DNA of 64,000 nucleotides from a virus. Lineage: Duplodnaviria > Caudoviricetes. Of the stretch, positions 15,964 through 43,545 are shown piece by piece (position 1 is the stretch's first letter; each line of letters opens with the position of its first letter). The DNA lies in the IMG/VR virus record IMGVR_UViG_3300017722_005389, one strand, 5' to 3'. The notes beneath the pieces are model-generated. The model ran no database searches. It had not been told where the DNA came from and worked only from the letters and a program-made list of their open reading frames with translations. The position numbers were made by a program, and so were the translations under genes.

Positions 15964-16060
15964 AGTCCTGTGGCGGAATTGGTAGACGCACCGAAAGGTA
16001 GGAACGGTATGGAACCCGATTAAATAATCCTAATTACAGGTTCAAATCCTGTCAGGACCA
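15964..16060 (+). tRNA. tRNA-like RNA (Leu/Ser-type D arm, canonical T arm, aberrant anticodon arm; anticodon not assignable)
   Basis: TGGCGGAATTGGTAGACGC D arm, ACAGG-TTCAAAT-CCTGT T arm, GTCCTG/CAGGAC acceptor stem; about 45 nt between D and T arms. Confidence 0.7.
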
Positions 16061-25011: not shown

Positions 25012-25851
25012 TCAATAAATTTCATCTAAGTCGATTCCGTGAGTTTCATACCACCATTCTTTTGACTTATTAGAATGTTTATCCTTTAATCTGTTATATC
25101 GTTCCAAAATTTTGTTTTGGCGTTCAATTTCATTATTAAAAAACTCATGTTCTAATACTTCTCTACACTTGTATATTTCACGAAGTATTTTACGTAAAAC
25201 ATAACCTTGTTTTAGATTAGAGGGTATATAACCACTTTCTATAATTTTTAGAGCCGTATCTTTGAGTGTTTCAACTTTATCTATTTTTTTACCATTGACA
25301 AACATTTCAAGTCTTTCAAGCCCAAATCCAACATCAATACAATTATCAAGTGGGTTGACAATATTACCAATTTCAATACCATCAACAAAAAATTCTGTAC
25401 AATAACCTCCTATTTCACCATCGCTCCAATGACAGTTTTCATCGTCTACTATTACATCCTCAATGCCCAGTTGATTATAATATCCAAGCCACTCTTTTCT
25501 GTCACTATGAATTGTAACATAATCGGGTGTAATACCTATTTTTTTTAAGAATGTAACCCAAAAGATAATAGTATCTTCAATAGACATCTCTCTGAATGAG
25601 AATAACCCAATCATATTAAAATAGAGCAAATGGGATAAATCGCCTATTTCTTCAAAGTCATTCATTCGAATACAAGCTTGAACATTTGAAACAGTATTTT
25701 TATATTCGCTATCTTTGAATTGACATTTGAATTTTTGCATTCCTGCAGGGCAAAACAAAGTTGTATTGTCATAAGGATTTACTTTGTTTTCAATGCTAAA
25801 GAAGATATTTTTTTCTTCGCAAAATTTTTGGTATTCTTCAATAATATTCAT
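25012..25851 (-). CDS. alaS: Minimal alanyl-tRNA synthetase-like protein (catalytic core only)
   Basis: TLFCPAGMQKFK, QACIR, HLLYFNMIGLFSF, IEIGNIV, IDVGFGLERL, PSNLKQGYVLRKILR; 279 aa, no editing or C-Ala domains. Confidence 0.9.
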   Translation of the reverse strand: MNIIEEYQKFCEEKNIFFSIENKVNPYDNTTLFCPAGMQKFKCQFKDSEYKNTVSNVQACIRMNDFEEIGDLSHLLYFNMIGLFSFREMSIEDTIIFWVTFLKKIGITPDYVTIHSDRKEWLGYYNQLGIEDVIVDDENCHWSDGEIGGYCTEFFVDGIEIGNIVNPLDNCIDVGFGLERLEMFVNGKKIDKVETLKDTALKIIESGYIPSNLKQGYVLRKILREIYKCREVLEHEFFNNEIERQNKILERYNRLKDKHSNKSKEWWYETHGIDLDEIY

Positions 25852-27480: not shown

Positions 27481-27798
27481 CTAAAGTACAAAACAAGGTA
27501 CTGAAACTATATGTCCAGCTTCATTTCTTACAACAGCTGGATGTCCAGTTGCAGGTGCAAGACAATCAGTTCTCCCTTGAAGCTTTGCAGCTGTCAGAAC
27601 CACTGCTGAAACTATAAAGAAAGTTCCCTCTGCTGAATCGGGCAGGTCTTGAACTGTCCCAAACACTTGGGAACAAATTCCGTTTTCTATTTCAGAGAAT
27701 GTCGCAGAAACTCTTGCAACAGTCCCAGATTTTACAAATACTGTCCCATCGTTGAAAACGATATCGTGTGGGGTGCAATTGATGAATGTAGCAGTCAT
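27481..27798 (-). CDS. Hypothetical protein
   Basis: INCTPHDI...IVSAVV motif; 105 aa. Confidence 0.8.
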   Translation of the reverse strand: MTATFINCTPHDIVFNDGTVFVKSGTVARVSATFSEIENGICSQVFGTVQDLPDSAEGTFFIVSAVVLTAAKLQGRTDCLAPATGHPAVVRNEAGHIVSVPCFVL

Positions 27799-27984
27799 AG
27801 TAGTAAAGATTTAAATGTTAATAAAATTTTTCAATGCTGCTTTGCCTGCAATGGGTTTAGTGTGAAAAAATACGGGCTTTAGGGTTTCCCACTCCCTTTT
27901 TTTTTATTTTATAAACAAAATCCCGATTTTTTCTTTGACTTCTTTATATTCACGAAATAGTCTTTTTAGTTTTAAAAAATAAAT

Positions 27985-28445
27985 TGGTGGCGTATTAATT
28001 ATTTCACGCCTTAACTCCCAATATCTATCAATTAGTTTATCCATTCAATTTTCTTTTTGCTTCAAACAAATCAAACATTTGCTCTCCAGTTAGCGATAAT
28101 GTAATCCTGCAGCCATCTGTATGAGTGCCTGTTATTTCATCTTCCCTCTGCACTCAGTTGTAATACTAAATAATGCTTGTATTTCTACACACTATTCATT
28201 AGAAGGTTTTCGTTTTATACCTCATAGATTACAACTGCTCACCCTTGGGAACTGATTAACTTACATACTCAAGGTTGTCATCCTTGTACTGTTCCTGAAG
28301 ACTTTACAGGTTTCACATTATGTAATTCATTCTGACTTGTGTAACAGTCTTATTAATCAGGTAGTTTCACATCTTAATAAGACATTCACTACTTTAAGTG
28401 AGTTGTGGTGCATTAAAAAGAGCAGTTTGTCTACATGCTCAGATA
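27985..28445 (-). ncRNA. Candidate large structured non-coding RNA (~460 nt)
   Basis: ORF-free; 10-bp stems 28347-56/28374-83 and 28155-64/28228-37; gagtgc/gcactc; caagg/ccttg; gagca/tgctc; GAAA loops on minus strand. Confidence 0.7.
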
Positions 28446-28531
28446 TACGCAGAATATCAATGCCTTTCTATGTTCTTTAATAAATTATTGCGCATTAAAA
28501 TTGCAGAACCTAATCTTTCAATTTTAGTGTG

Positions 28532-28570
28532 AAAAAAAAGGGGGCAAATGCCAAAGGGAAATCGCCCCCC
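28532..28570 (-). terminator. Intrinsic terminator-like hairpin
   Basis: Minus: gggggcga...ttgccccc-tttttttt. Confidence 0.65.
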
Positions 28571-28588: not shown

Positions 28589-28915
28589 CTATATGGATGG
28601 AACTAAATTGCTTTTTAATACCTCTTGGATTCTTTCAACAACTTCCTTAGAATTTCCTCCAACATTCCAATGGGTTATTTTTGTTTTGGCTGTACCCTCT
28701 CTGCCAAGATAATTTTTGCCGTTCTTCCAATTATAGATGGTGGCAACAGTACCATCTTCGAATTGAATATACCATTCAGCATCGGTCTTATATCCCTCGT
28801 CTGATTGTGGTTTTCCGAAAATCTTTTTAAGTAAGCTGTACTCCGCATCAATGTAACCTTGAAAATGAGTTCCATTGACATCAATGTTTGACTTATTGTG
28901 TGTTACGAATTTCAT
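28589..28915 (-). CDS. Hypothetical phage protein
   Basis: Start moved to MKFVTH; KTDAEW..ATIYNWK..WNVGG motif. Confidence 0.8.
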   Translation of the reverse strand: MKFVTHNKSNIDVNGTHFQGYIDAEYSLLKKIFGKPQSDEGYKTDAEWYIQFEDGTVATIYNWKNGKNYLGREGTAKTKITHWNVGGNSKEVVERIQEVLKSNLVPSI

Positions 28916-29054
28916 AAGAAAATAAAATTTAATAGTGAGTGAATTAAACGACCTTACAAAGATACAACTTACATTTGGCATTTCAAAATTTTTCTTTAGA
29001 AAAAAACAAGGGCTTCAAAACTTTTTTTGCTTTCTAATGAAGCCCTTGTATATT

Positions 29055-39760: not shown

Positions 39761-40104
39761 AAGAAGTAAATTTAATAGTGATAAATAATTGACCTTACAA
39801 AAGTATACTTTATCTTGATATTATTATAACTTTTTTTACTTTATTTTCAAAAATAAAAAATTTAACTAAATTTATTTGGAAATATCAAATCTCCATTCTG
39901 GGGCATTATTTTTCAAAAGTCAACATAGTGTCCAACTGATGACATAAAATGGCTCAAAACCCGGTTTTTGTGGCTTCTGAAGGCATCTGAACGTTCTGAA
40001 TGCATCTGATAACCCCGATGAATGATATACTAAAAAATTACCTATAGGCAATAAAAAAACCCCGAAAGGGGTTTTTGTTCATTGTGTAAAGTTTTTTATA
40101 AATT

Positions 40105-40344
40105 TTATAGTTCAATTAAAATTGTTTTTCCAACTTCAAACAAATGCTCAAAGCCTTTTTTGTCCATGTCGGTATAAACACCGCAATGAAATGTACTGCC
40201 TAATCCGTTACGGCAAATCATAGTGCCGTAGATTATTTTAGAATCTGCACTTACTTCGATGTGAGTTTCTTGTAAGTTTTTAGATTCTTCTGTATCCCAA
40301 TACTGAGCTAATAAAGCTAATTTTAAATCATTGATAGTTTTCAT
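40105..40344 (-). CDS. Hypothetical protein (cassette 2)
   Basis: 79-aa ORF. Confidence 0.75.
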   Translation of the reverse strand: MKTINDLKLALLAQYWDTEESKNLQETHIEVSADSKIIYGTMICRNGLGSTFHCGVYTDMDKKGFEHLFEVGKTILIEL

Positions 40345-40675
40345 TGAATAGTAGTGTTTAAAGTGAATTAAATAATTTACCTTACAAAGGTATACTTTGT
40401 TTTTATATTATTATAATTTTTTTTGCTTTATTTTCAAAAATAAAAAATTTAACTAAATTTATTTTGAAATATCAAATTTCGATTCTGGGGCATTGTTTTT
40501 CCTTAGAAGGTATAAGATGTCCAAATGTCAATAAAATGCTCTCTGAGGGCAAATCTGAGTGTTCTGAATGCATCTGAACGTTCTAATGACATCTGATAAC
40601 CCCAATAAATGATATACTAAAAAATTACCTATAGGCAATAAAAAAACCCCTTTCGGGGTTTCTGTTTTGATAAAT

Positions 40676-41002
40676 TTAATCGTTTTTGAAGATTTTAGAA
40701 AATAATTGGTCAATACCAAATCCTAATACTTGATGTTTTGTACCATTCATTTCAAAATGACATTCAATCTCGATGCCATATATTGTTTTACCTGTACCCA
40801 CACAAACTAATGTATCGCCAAAATCTGCTTTATTTGGAAGATACAATTCATAGCTTTGACTACCATAATAGCCATCGTGATAGGTGTACCCACCCCCACC
40901 AGTTGATAGGGCTAATACTTGCTGGCTGTTACGAATTTTAATTTTTGTTCCATAGTAATTGATATAATAATCAACAGATTTTAAAGATTTTTGCGTTGTC
41001 AT
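40676..41002 (-). CDS. Hypothetical protein (cassette 3)
   Basis: 108-aa ORF. Confidence 0.8.
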   Translation of the reverse strand: MTTQKSLKSVDYYINYYGTKIKIRNSQQVLALSTGGGGYTYHDGYYGSQSYELYLPNKADFGDTLVCVGTGKTIYGIEIECHFEMNGTKHQVLGFGIDQLFSKIFKND

Positions 41003-41319
41003 AATAGTAGTGTTTAAAGTGAATTAAATTATTGACCTTACAAAGGTATACTTTGTTTTTATATTATTATAACTTTTTTTACTTTATTTTCAAAAATAAA
41101 AATTTTAACTAAATTTATTTGGAAATATCAAATTTCGATTCTGGGGCATTATTTTTCTTCAGAAGGTATAAGATGTCCAAATGCCAATAAAATGCTTTCT
41201 GAGGGCAAATCTGAACGTTCTGAAGGCATCTGAACGTTCTGAAGGTATCTGATAACCCCGATGAATGATATACGACAATTTGATATAGGGACAAAAAAAA
41301 TCCCCTTTCGGGGACTTTT

Positions 41320-41619
41320 TTAAAAAAAAGAAATTTCAATTTCTTTTTTTTGTGTTATTAACTCATATCGGCTCTCGCCAACATATTTGCGAGAAACGAT
41401 ATGTTTATTTTTTTGTATGTAAAATGTTCCCTTTATAATTAATACATCGCCCTTTGGCGATGCTTTCCAATGGATAATGTCAGTTACAGTTACTGACACC
41501 ATTGTTATTTGCCTATTATAAGTTATAGGTACAATAATTCTGTCACCTATGGTGTTTGGGCAATAATCGTACGTTAAGTTAGTTAGGCAGTTGTTTCTAA
41601 CAATTGTTACCTTTTTCAT
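41320..41619 (-). CDS. Hypothetical protein (cassette 4)
   Basis: 99-aa ORF. Confidence 0.75.
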   Translation of the reverse strand: MKKVTIVRNNCLTNLTYDYCPNTIGDRIIVPITYNRQITMVSVTVTDIIHWKASPKGDVLIIKGTFYIQKNKHIVSRKYVGESRYELITQKKEIEISFF

Positions 41620-41956
41620 AATAGTAGTGTTTAAAGTGAATTAAATTAATGACCTTACAAAGGTATACTTTATCTTGATATTATTATAATTTTTTTTGCT
41701 TTATTTTCAAAAATAAAAAATTTAACTAAATTTATTTGGAAATATCAAATCTCCATTCTGGGGCATTATTTTTCTTTAGAAGGTATATGACATCCAAAAG
41801 ATAATAAAATGCACTCAGAGGGCAAATCTGAGTGTTCTGAATGCATCTGAGTGTTCTGAATGCATCTGAGTGTTCTGAATGCATCGGATAACCCCAATAA
41901 ATGATATACTAAAAAATTACCTATAGGCAATAAAAAAACCCCTTTCGGGGTTTCTG

Positions 41957-42286
41957 TTATATTGCCCAAACACCACCGCAACCACAATTAGATTCTTCGG
42001 GTTCTTTGCGATTCCCACAATCGCAGTATATCAAATCTTCGTAGGCTTTTTCAGCCTCGAATAATGCACTTTCGGTGGCATAGCCTTTGCGAGAATAACC
42101 ATCCCAACCTTTGAGTTTAGAACTCAATTGCGAGAGGTTTTTTTCCGCTTGTTGCAACTTTGTAAGTTGCGTTGGTTGTGTTGGCATTTTGAACCAATCC
42201 TGCTTTAGCAACCAATCCTGATACCATTTAGGGGTATTAGAAAAATTTTCGCCTTTGTACTTTCCGAATTTAAGAATGAAGTTCAT
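41957..42286 (-). CDS. DUF3820-like N-terminus plus Cys-rich tail (cassette 5)
   Basis: LKFGKYKG....TPKWY.DWL; CDCG..CGCG. Confidence 0.7.
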   Translation of the reverse strand: MNFILKFGKYKGENFSNTPKWYQDWLLKQDWFKMPTQPTQLTKLQQAEKNLSQLSSKLKGWDGYSRKGYATESALFEAEKAYEDLIYCDCGNRKEPEESNCGCGGVWAI

Positions 42287-42628
42287 AATAGTAGTGTTTA
42301 AAGTGAATTAAATTAATGACCTTACAAAGATATACTTTGTTTTTATATTATTATAATTTTTTCTACTTTATTTTCAAAAATAAAAAATTTAACTAAATTT
42401 ATTTGGAAATATCAAATTTCGATTCTGGAGCATTGTTTTTCCTTAGAAGGTATAAGATGTCCAAATGCCAATAAAATGCTTTCTGAGGGCAAATCTGAGC
42501 GTTCTGTAGGCATCTGAGTGTAAATCTGTCCGACATTCAATTGCCCGATAGATAATATGCTACATTGCTTTATGGTATACTAAAAAATGTCCAATGGGCA
42601 AAAAAAAAGCCCCTTTCGGGGCTGTTGG

Positions 42629-43282
42629 TTATTCGTTTACTACAATGGTTTCACCCATTGCTTTCAGCGTATGTATCGCTGAAACTTTGAATTGGCGGAA
42701 TTTACCGCTTTTCATTTTAGACCTTAATATGTCTTTCGCTTTAGTTAATGCATACCTTGTGTCGGTTTTTTCAGTTTCGCTTTCGGTGACTACAACTTTG
42801 TCCCGAACTTGAAACCCGAACACAAAATATTCGTTTGTTGTCGGGTTGAACTTGAACCCATTGTCCAAGATTTCATAGGCAGATTTTTGCCCTTTGCTTC
42901 TGTTGTAGGCTGTTTGAACATCTTTAGCAGTGCAGTTTATGTCAGCTTTAGTGCCAATTCCCGAAAGGAATTGAACAACCAATCCTGCAATATGCGTGAA
43001 ATCTGCATCCGCTTTAAAATGGCGCAAATAATCAGCAATTTTGAATGCTTTTAATAGCTCAACACGAGCCGTTTCAAGCAGCATATCTTTGTCGCTGAAA
43101 TTTAGCGACATAAGATAATTGAAATCGTCAGATTTAGCCTTTTCAAGGCTGTAACCGACATTTATCAGTTGGTTTTGAACTTCGCCAAGTTCATTTGTGT
43201 AGCCATTGATAGCTACAAAACTTGTACCTTTAATTTGGCTTAGTGTAGCCTTAACAGTTTCAAAAGACATTACATTTGTCAT
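42629..43282 (-). CDS. Hypothetical protein (cassette 6), paralog of 26864..27367
   Basis: Shared motifs with 26864. Confidence 0.85.
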   Translation of the reverse strand: MTNVMSFETVKATLSQIKGTSFVAINGYTNELGEVQNQLINVGYSLEKAKSDDFNYLMSLNFSDKDMLLETARVELLKAFKIADYLRHFKADADFTHIAGLVVQFLSGIGTKADINCTAKDVQTAYNRSKGQKSAYEILDNGFKFNPTTNEYFVFGFQVRDKVVVTESETEKTDTRYALTKAKDILRSKMKSGKFRQFKVSAIHTLKAMGETIVVNE

Positions 43283-43545
43283 AATAGTAGTGTTTAAAGT
43301 GAATTAAATAATTGACCTTACAAAGGTCTTATTTTATTTTATATTATTATAATTTTTTCTACTTTATTTTCAAAAATAAAAAATTTAACATAAAAAATTT
43401 GGAAATATCAAATTTCGATTCTGAAGCGTTATTTTTCAAAAGTCAACATAGTGTCCAACTAATGACATAAAATGGCTCAAAACCCGGTTTTTGTGGCTTC
43501 TGAAGGCATATAAGGTTCTTTAGAAAATCAATATTTTTTCTTTAG

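Follow-up and report, generated by a model that had tools for sequence, protein, structure and literature searches.

A phage gene cassette with a composite structured leader that probably includes a type-P1 twister ribozyme enlarged in loop L4

The question raised by this locus was what occupies the 790 nt that separate two minus-strand genes (28981..28589 and 27798..27481) of a phage (Duplodnaviria; Caudoviricetes; IMG/VR record IMGVR_UViG_3300017722_005389), of which a stretch of 64,000 nucleotides, referred to here as the window, was analyzed. An earlier note had proposed that positions 27985-28445, which lie in this gap, form one densely paired noncoding RNA of about 460 nt, free of open reading frames (ORFs) on both strands, richer in GC than its flanks, and belonging to an ornate class such as ROOL or GOLLD or to a new one. 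The GC content was 0.34-0.375 in the interval and 0.355-0.435 in the coding flanks, which was the reverse of the proposed difference, and single-sequence folding of the interval was no better than that of shuffles (minus strand, z = -1.69; plus strand, z = -0.35). Together with the lack of an Rfam match, these values meant that the window sequence alone was insufficient to establish an RNA. Based on the comparisons with relatives and homologs presented below, we concluded, with a probability of roughly 0.8, that the region is a gene cassette acquired by the phage, with a composite structured leader that includes a type-P1 twister ribozyme, and not a single large RNA.

Relatives of the locus were retrieved via the two flanking proteins, which yielded three IMG/VR contigs (L001/L006, L002/L005, and L004/L007) whose flanking proteins were 89-99% identical to those of the window. 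In these contigs, the counterpart of window 29632->28523 (90-92% identity) was joined directly to that of 27876->25948 (96% identity); positions 27877-28522 were missing, and the intergenic spacer was about 125 nt, compared to 790 nt in the window. A 15-nt direct repeat, TTTTTTCACACTAAA, was found at both junctions on the minus strand, which also carries the other features of the locus described below. The left copy (28523..28537) is the tail of the terminator of the upstream gene, which is a strong hairpin (-22.3 kcal/mol, z = -3.98), and the right copy (27856..27870) is the end of the cassette. When one copy of the repeat is included, the cassette measures 667 bp (27856..28522) and has no counterpart in the near-identical phage contigs. 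It is a self-contained unit missing at the same site in close relatives, as is the case for moron-like insertions. A mobile element of the MITE or IS kind was ruled out, since no terminal inverted repeats were found at the cassette and no second copy was found within the 64-kb window. A consensus scan identified no promoter belonging to the cassette. The same scan did not pick up a weak terminator-like hairpin, GGGAGUGGGAAACCCUAAAGCCC (27865..27896; -8.2 kcal/mol, z = -0.42), which is preceded by A9 and followed by GUA-U6, and its assignment is tentative for that reason. A blastn search against GenBank phages gave no match.

The downstream part of the cassette is, by comparison with its homologs, a real protein gene. 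The ORF at 27904..28044 is predicted to encode a 46-aa protein (MDKLIDRYWELRREIINTPPIYF...) with 12 homologs at 64-93% identity, among which a TPPIYF motif is invariant; the homologs are found in packed small-gene arrays of other phage contigs, and no ribozyme was present there. The 3' 60 nt of the interval that had been described as lacking an ORF (27985-28044) are part of this gene. The ggcgu/acgcc hairpin followed by ACCA, which had been taken for the 3' end of the RNA, also falls inside it (27995-28016), and ACGCCACCA encodes T-P-P. In one homolog (L203:2534-2556), this hairpin reads GGUGU/ACACC, with both sides changed and pairing kept; this is a single case and could be due to chance. 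Readings of the region as a group I intron, tmRNA, RNase P, or Y-RNA/tRNA-like molecule were rejected, as they had no Rfam support and the putative ACCA 3' end is coding sequence. The absence of RNase P, tmRNA, and group I signatures, already reported in the earlier note, held even at E<=10.

Upstream of the gene, the proposal of a conserved structured RNA was upheld, with a different extent: the interval comprises a conserved RNA of about 280 nt (28140..28419), a 95-nt leader between this RNA and the start codon (28045..28139) that is not conserved in homologs, and the start of the 46-aa gene. Exact matches to the 22-mer AGATGTGAAACTACCTGATTAA were found in 24 IMG/VR contigs, matches to ATTACAACTGAGTGCAGAGGG in >119, and matches to GATATAAAGACTTCTTA in 82, with about 46 unique copies of the last located in complete twister contexts. 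The gene neighborhoods of the contigs with these words were unrelated to one another. ATTACAACTGAGTGCAGAGGG was found in only five prokaryotic MAG contigs, so the RNA is essentially phage-borne. When the homologs were aligned, conserved blocks alternated with three variable regions, and conservation ended just past GAGGG and a few bases (P1).

Most copies were short (96 instances, 80 of them unique, with lengths of about 115-135 nt). The order of elements in this form is P1 - U^AA - UGCA (P2) - CC - AYAA - CUCAC (P4) - UUCCCAAGG (L4) - GUGAG (P4') - CAGUUGUAAU..AUUACAACUG (P5) - AG - UGCA (P2') - GAGGG - P1'. It parallels, element by element, the Rfam twister-P1 consensus ccuuUAAcgCcGCC..cCGGUCCCAAGCCCGg..gGcgGAGGGaagg, which reads more fully ccuuUAAcgCcGCC[P3]cCGGUCCCAAGCCCGggUAAA..gGcgGAGGGaagg. 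The twister class was described by Roth et al. in 2014 (cited via the reviews PMC5408937 and PMC11662667), and its published consensus has the essential stems P1, P2, and P4, two pseudoknots, and the optional stems P0, P3, and P5 (PMC5408937). Because the published position of P3 in L2 is on the 5' side and that of P5 is on the 3' side (PMC11662667), the short form is read as a predicted type-P1 twister with P5 and without P3. The short forms are, then, new members of the known twister class.

The window copy could be matched to the same consensus block by block, as a predicted type-P1 twister that has P5 and carries an insertion domain in L4. P1 pairs UUUU (28419-16) with AAGA (28143-40) and P2 pairs UGCA (28412-09) with UGCA (28152-49); the predicted scissile bond, placed by analogy with the class, is U28415^A28414. 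P4 is formed by CUCAC (28402-398) and GUGAG (28242-38), and the L4 loop sequence UUCCCAAGG lies at 28251-43. The pseudoknot partners are CCC (28249-47) and GGG (28146-44) for T1 and CC (28408-07) and GG (28244-43) for T2, and GAGGG is found at 28148-44. The P5 stem (28155..28237) consists of CAGUUGUAAU (28237-28) and AUUACAACUG (28164-55) and encloses a 63-nt variable interior that includes a UGUA-GAAA-UACA hairpin. Thus, U^AA, P2, CC/GG, P4, UUCCCAAGG, P5, and GAGGG were all intact in the window, and a descriptor scan of the window returned this copy as its sole candidate.

The earlier note had named the lack of covariation among homologs as evidence against an RNA. Covariation was seen in P4, P2, P1, P5, H1, and Pa (the last two are elements of the enlarged form described below). 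Among the 80 unique minimal copies, the five positions of P4 were 99-100% paired, with two to four Watson-Crick types per position. In a 17-sequence alignment, all five P4 pairs changed on both sides and 97.6% of cells were paired; the covariation score was 0.223, compared to 0.115 for shuffles (0/500 reached 0.223) and 0.04-0.06 for slid partners. P1 was variable and had many pair types, and it was weak, as 52% of cells were paired in the same alignment. P2 variants included UGCA/UGCA, CACA/UGUG, UGCG/CGCA, and UGUA/UACA. The columns of T1 (CCC/GGG), T2 (CC/GG), and most of P2 and P5 were nearly invariant in the homolog set, which is partly because homologs were retrieved with exact 17-22-nt patterns that fixed some of these columns by design. 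The set retrieved via a word in the L4 domain leaves the 3' half unconstrained, and P2 and P5 covaried there (for P5, UAGC/GCUA and CAAUUG/CAAUUG). Complementary T1 and T2 partners were present in 97-100% of copies, in columns too invariant for a covariation signal to be read. RNAalifold, when run unaided, recovered P2, P4, H1, Pc, Pa, and P5, with compensatory changes in 18/43 pairs.

A covariance model was built from 17 minimal copies, with the window excluded. When searched against the 64-kb window, the model gave one match (28276..28136, minus strand, 57.1 bits, E 7e-12), the 5' part of which is mis-threaded because the true 5' strand lies past the L4 insertion. The score was 18.2 bits on the plus strand, which agreed with the proposal that the minus strand is the functional one. 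Rfam scans, which had also been suggested as a check, were run at the gathering thresholds and at E<=10 on the window, 18 homologous loci, and 5 further loci. No match to the element itself was obtained in any scanned locus; the only hits were tRNAs, hatchet ribozymes, and one canonical twister located elsewhere. In the window and the 18 homologous loci, the twister models (RF03160, RF03154, and RF02684) and the twister-sister model (RF02681) gave no match at E<=10, so the score of the Rfam twister model stayed below its gathering threshold. The same scan did find a canonical twister-P1 elsewhere in one contig (L127, 48.5 bits). The likely cause of the miss is the 60-170-nt P5 plus the L4 domain, which fall where the model expects a few bases. 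The RNA is indeed missing from Rfam hits, and since its architecture is not scored by the Rfam twister models, the suggested Rfam test would pass over it. The stems P1, P2, and P4 occur in canonical order with L1, L2, and L4; the window also has the conserved nucleotides (UAA at the scissile bond, YCCCAAG in L4, and GAGGG 5' of the P1 3' strand), which are near-invariant in the 80 minimal and 46 enlarged unique copies. By these comparative criteria, the RNA is a predicted twister, and the Rfam score was the sole measure that failed to recognize it.

P4 directly closes the 9-nt L4 loop of the common form. The window copy falls in an enlarged subclass (at least 46 unique copies) that retains P4 but has L4 open on the 5' side, where H1 carrying Pc, followed by Pa, makes up an inserted domain of about 100-300 nt. 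Between the P4 5' strand and C-UCCCAAGG, the insert reads G-UAG (H1) - AUAUAAAG - ACUUCUUA..V1..UAAGAUGU (Pc), followed by GAAA - CUAC (H1') - CUGAUUAA..V2..UUAAUCAG (Pa). The result is a three-way junction of P4, H1, and Pa that has no linker nucleotides and whose third strand is the catalytic L4 sequence. The enlarged copies had compensatory variants of P4 (CUCAU/AUGAG, CCUAC/GUAGG, CCUGA/UCAGG, CCCAU/AUGGG, and CUAUC/GAUAG) and several compensatory pair types at each position of Pa. In the case of H1, pair 3 was G:C in 29/46 copies and A:U in 17/46, with all copies paired, and pair 2 was C:G in one copy. A U.U mismatch in Pc was kept in every copy of the enlarged form, and one contig (L162) had an intermediate form in which H1 is a simple hairpin. 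Kink-turn, loop-E, and tetraloop-receptor motifs were checked by eye at the H1/Pc internal loop, and none fit. No description of an L4 insertion was found in the twister literature that we searched, which did not cover the original 2014 class paper, and the enlarged form does not seem to have been catalogued as a twister variant, as far as we checked.

In the window, the L4 domain (28252..28397) consists of a UUAAA linker, H1 (GUAG 28392-89 and CUAC 28364-61), Pc (AUGUCUU-AUU-AAGAUGU, 28385-69), GAAA (28368-65), and Pa (CUGAUUAA 28360-53 and UUAAUCAG 28259-52, with a 93-nt variable region inside). It is atypical in that it has the extra linker, has UGA in place of AUAUAAAG, and has V1 reduced to a triloop, and it could be degenerate. 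These departures from an otherwise near-invariant junction raise an alternative, namely, that the window copy is a decaying, catalytically dead relic whose accessory domain has degenerated and that only the small gene matters now. The four-pair P1 would fit this idea, as would strong window-specific alternative stems that compete with Pc/Pa and P2'/T1. We consider it unlikely, although it is the alternative that should be taken most seriously: the window copy has lost none of the core twister elements, its H1 and Pc fold in the predicted way, pairing in Pc is kept or improved by the changes there (U-G for C-G, and G-U for the U.U mismatch), and P1 is reported not to be important for twister cleavage (PMC11662667).

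Of the stems listed in the earlier note, both 10-bp inverted repeats exist. One of them, CAGTTGTAAT/ATTACAACTG (28155-64 / 28228-37), is P5 and, with the gagca/ugcuc hairpin described in the next paragraph, is one of the only two listed stems that are kept in homologs. The other, GTCTTATTAA/TTAATAAGAC (28347-56 / 28374-83), is not kept, and its arms lie on Pc and the Pa 5' strand. The gagugc/gcacuc and cacu/agug stems, which are also not kept, overlap the conserved strands of P2', P4, and H1, and caagg/ccuug sits in a variable loop.

The predicted twister is preceded by a second conserved RNA module, AUAGAAAGG-hairpin-GUAUAUCUGAGCAUGUAGACAAACUGCUC (28420..28471), which was found in nine contexts. 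Its pattern is AAUAGAAAGG-[4-bp covarying hairpin, loop UGAUAUU]-GUAUACCUGAGCAUGUAGACAAACUGCUY, and its last hairpin, GAGCA (28440-28436) / UGCUC (28424-28420), occupies the P0 position. Both hairpins covary, the first as GACG/CGUC, GCAG/CUGC, and GUAG/CUAC and the last as GAGCA/UGCUC versus AAGCA/UGCUU. The module had no Rfam match. It was also present in L100, L105, L156, L163, L177, L196, L198, and L202, with or without a downstream twister, and a recurrent hairpin, CAAGGGUUGCAACCUUG-UGAGAGUAC, preceded it at several loci.

Taken as a type-P1 twister in the leader of an acquired cassette, the RNA suggests the following course of events. A minus-strand transcript would open with the upstream hairpin module followed by the twister. 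By analogy with the class, cleavage would occur at the U28415-A28414 bond, on the 5' edge of the ribozyme. It would give the upstream RNA a 2',3'-cyclic phosphate, and the message for the 46-aa protein would have a 5'-OH and the compact, folded ribozyme at its 5' end. Such cleavage would separate the small-gene message from the upstream RNA and uncouple their fates. In the enlarged form, L4 would become a single-stranded arm of a tight three-way junction, and the most likely role of the L4 domain would be to scaffold or gate formation of the T1/T2 pseudoknots.

The genes downstream of the homologs point to a generic element. An ATG ORF started within 60 nt of the ribozyme 3' end in 45/126 instances, and a cluster of these starts lay 29-60 nt from that end. 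Grouping the first protein downstream in 112 instances gave 82 clusters, which speaks for a generic processing element rather than regulation of particular genes; a riboswitch-like tie to one gene family was rejected on this basis. A general role in tRNA processing was likewise unsupported, as ARAGORN called a tRNA within 300 nt downstream in only 2/134 instances. It is conceivable, but we rate it a long shot, that the L4 domain (H1, the AUAUAAAG/GAAA internal loop, Pc with its invariant U.U mismatch, and Pa) is a sensor and the enlarged form a natural allosteric twister. If so, T1 and T2 would form only once a ligand or protein folded the domain, and cleavage of many different phage early messages would answer one common signal.

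Two further readings would remove the ribozyme leader altogether. According to the first, the interval is a single, stable, ornate noncoding RNA about 460 nt long, a member of the ROOL/GOLLD group or of a new class. The long ORF-poor stretch with many stems is what suggested it, and some homologs lie near tRNA genes; ROOL and GOLLD RNAs occur near tRNA genes. We regard this reading as very improbable. ROOL and GOLLD models were unmatched at E<=10 and the core is that of a predicted twister; conservation stops directly past GAGGG and P1 and covers about 280 nt plus the 50-nt upstream module, short of the >500 nt of conserved structure in those families; the 3' third is a leader and a conserved protein gene; and most copies of this RNA have only about 115-135 nt. 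According to the second, to which we give hardly any weight, conservation is mainly at the DNA level, in a recombination or mobility module that shuffles small-gene cassettes among phages, with the RNA folds being incidental; the arrival of the element with 15-nt direct repeats and the identity of 17-22-nt stretches across many unrelated contigs speak for it, but the pairing-keeping compensatory changes in P4, P2, P1, H1, and Pa indicate selection on RNA, the insertion junctions lie at least 100 nt outside the ribozyme, and no terminal inverted repeats were found.

Several other observations were made during the analysis. Contigs with the twister variant also carried hatchet ribozymes (RF02678, 81-83 bits; L202:8766-8903, L177:2899-3036, and L105:46-208) and the sub-threshold canonical type-P1 twister mentioned above (L127:855-923). 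These regions of the phage contigs are ribozyme-rich, which fits the published clustering of self-cleaving ribozymes in phage-related regions (PMC10085705; PMC6765202). Eight relatives (L122, L141, L163, L201, L089, L095, L140, and L169) share P4'/P5/P2'/GAGGG and have 5' halves in which UAA is missing or the sequence is CCCAAUGCAC or CCUUUGCA, and the UCCCAAG loop is absent from some of them; judged from their sequences, they may be rearranged or degenerate twister forms. In L080 (2220-2340), the V1 loop of the L4 domain contains sequences like those of a tRNA D-arm and T-arm (GCCCAAUUGGUAGAGCG ... GGUUCGAGCCC), as if a tRNA-like unit were nested inside the putative ribozyme. In L063, ARAGORN called a tRNA with the anticodon UUA (ochre suppressor) 104-181 nt downstream of an enlarged twister, in the same region as L064:4630-4710, which hints at stop-codon recoding in that phage. 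tRNA-like 5' ends (AGUCAGGUGGCG..) that ARAGORN did not call directly follow the twisters of L116 and L149. The 5' end of a tRNA in the window itself (15964-16060, plus strand, 37.3 bits) is similar to these; this tRNA has 33 nt in a stretch that takes 17 in the model, together with an extra arm of 9 nt, and it may have an intron or a long variable arm.

Elsewhere in the window, intergenic elements of about 90-110 nt are repeated between 24236 and 32430 (32401-32295, 31853-31759, 31306-31180, 30650-30553, 29632-29521, 25012-24920, and 24328-24236) and are also repeated in related contigs. A short motif recurs every 600-650 nt or so between small minus-strand genes at 39900-43380, with TAATGCCCC at 41768, 41151, and 39908 and A/T-rich matches at 39840-57, 40427-44, 41083-100, 41700-17, 42367-84, and 43363-80. 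The first 160 or so residues of a 279-aa ORF (25012-25851, minus strand) match the class II alanyl-tRNA synthetase family (PF01411, E 1.3e-20), and the ORF is predicted to encode a truncated AlaRS-like protein in this phage.

Twister is among the best-studied small ribozymes. The comparisons presented here point to a widespread phage twister lineage, with its core in more than a hundred contigs and its enlarged form in dozens, that the Rfam twister models miss in both forms; phage ribozyme counts based on Rfam would accordingly be underestimates. The L4 domain would be a natural test of how much the active-site loop of a twister tolerates and a possible control point. In the window, the putative ribozyme and a small gene would have moved together in one inserted cassette, a case relevant to the ways in which phages put together, and insulate, their small accessory genes.

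The known system closest to this RNA is the type-P1 twister (RF03160). The two share the order of elements, the U^AA loop, P2, P4 with its YCCCAAG loop, GAGGG before the P1 3' strand, complementary segments for T1 and T2, a P5 stem on the 3' side of L2, a hairpin at the place of P0, and a ribozyme-rich phage neighborhood. They differ in that P3 is absent here, the enlarged subclass has H1 with Pc and Pa between the P4 5' strand and UCCCAAGG, neither the minimal nor the enlarged form is scored by the Rfam models, and the T2 partners are CC/GG here and G-C in both segments of the Rfam consensus. On the assignment of T2 partners that we take to apply in the published structures, CC/GG keeps the pairing. 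Type-P5 and type-P3 twisters (RF02684 and RF03154) have the catalytic core and pseudoknots predicted for this RNA but are circularly permuted: their open stem is P5 or P3, and that of this RNA is P1. According to reviews, these two types and twister-sister are common between small phage genes, as is this RNA. ROOL and GOLLD are likewise phage-borne, structured, and sometimes near tRNA genes, but they match this RNA neither in sequence nor in structure, and this RNA is much smaller and has the core of a known ribozyme. The theta (HDV-like) ribozymes next to phage tRNAs (PMC10879173) and other self-cleaving ribozymes that punctuate phage and prophage operons are also small RNAs located between phage genes or beside tRNAs, where they presumably serve transcript processing. 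They belong to other classes, whereas the twister proposed here would stay on the 5' end of the downstream message.
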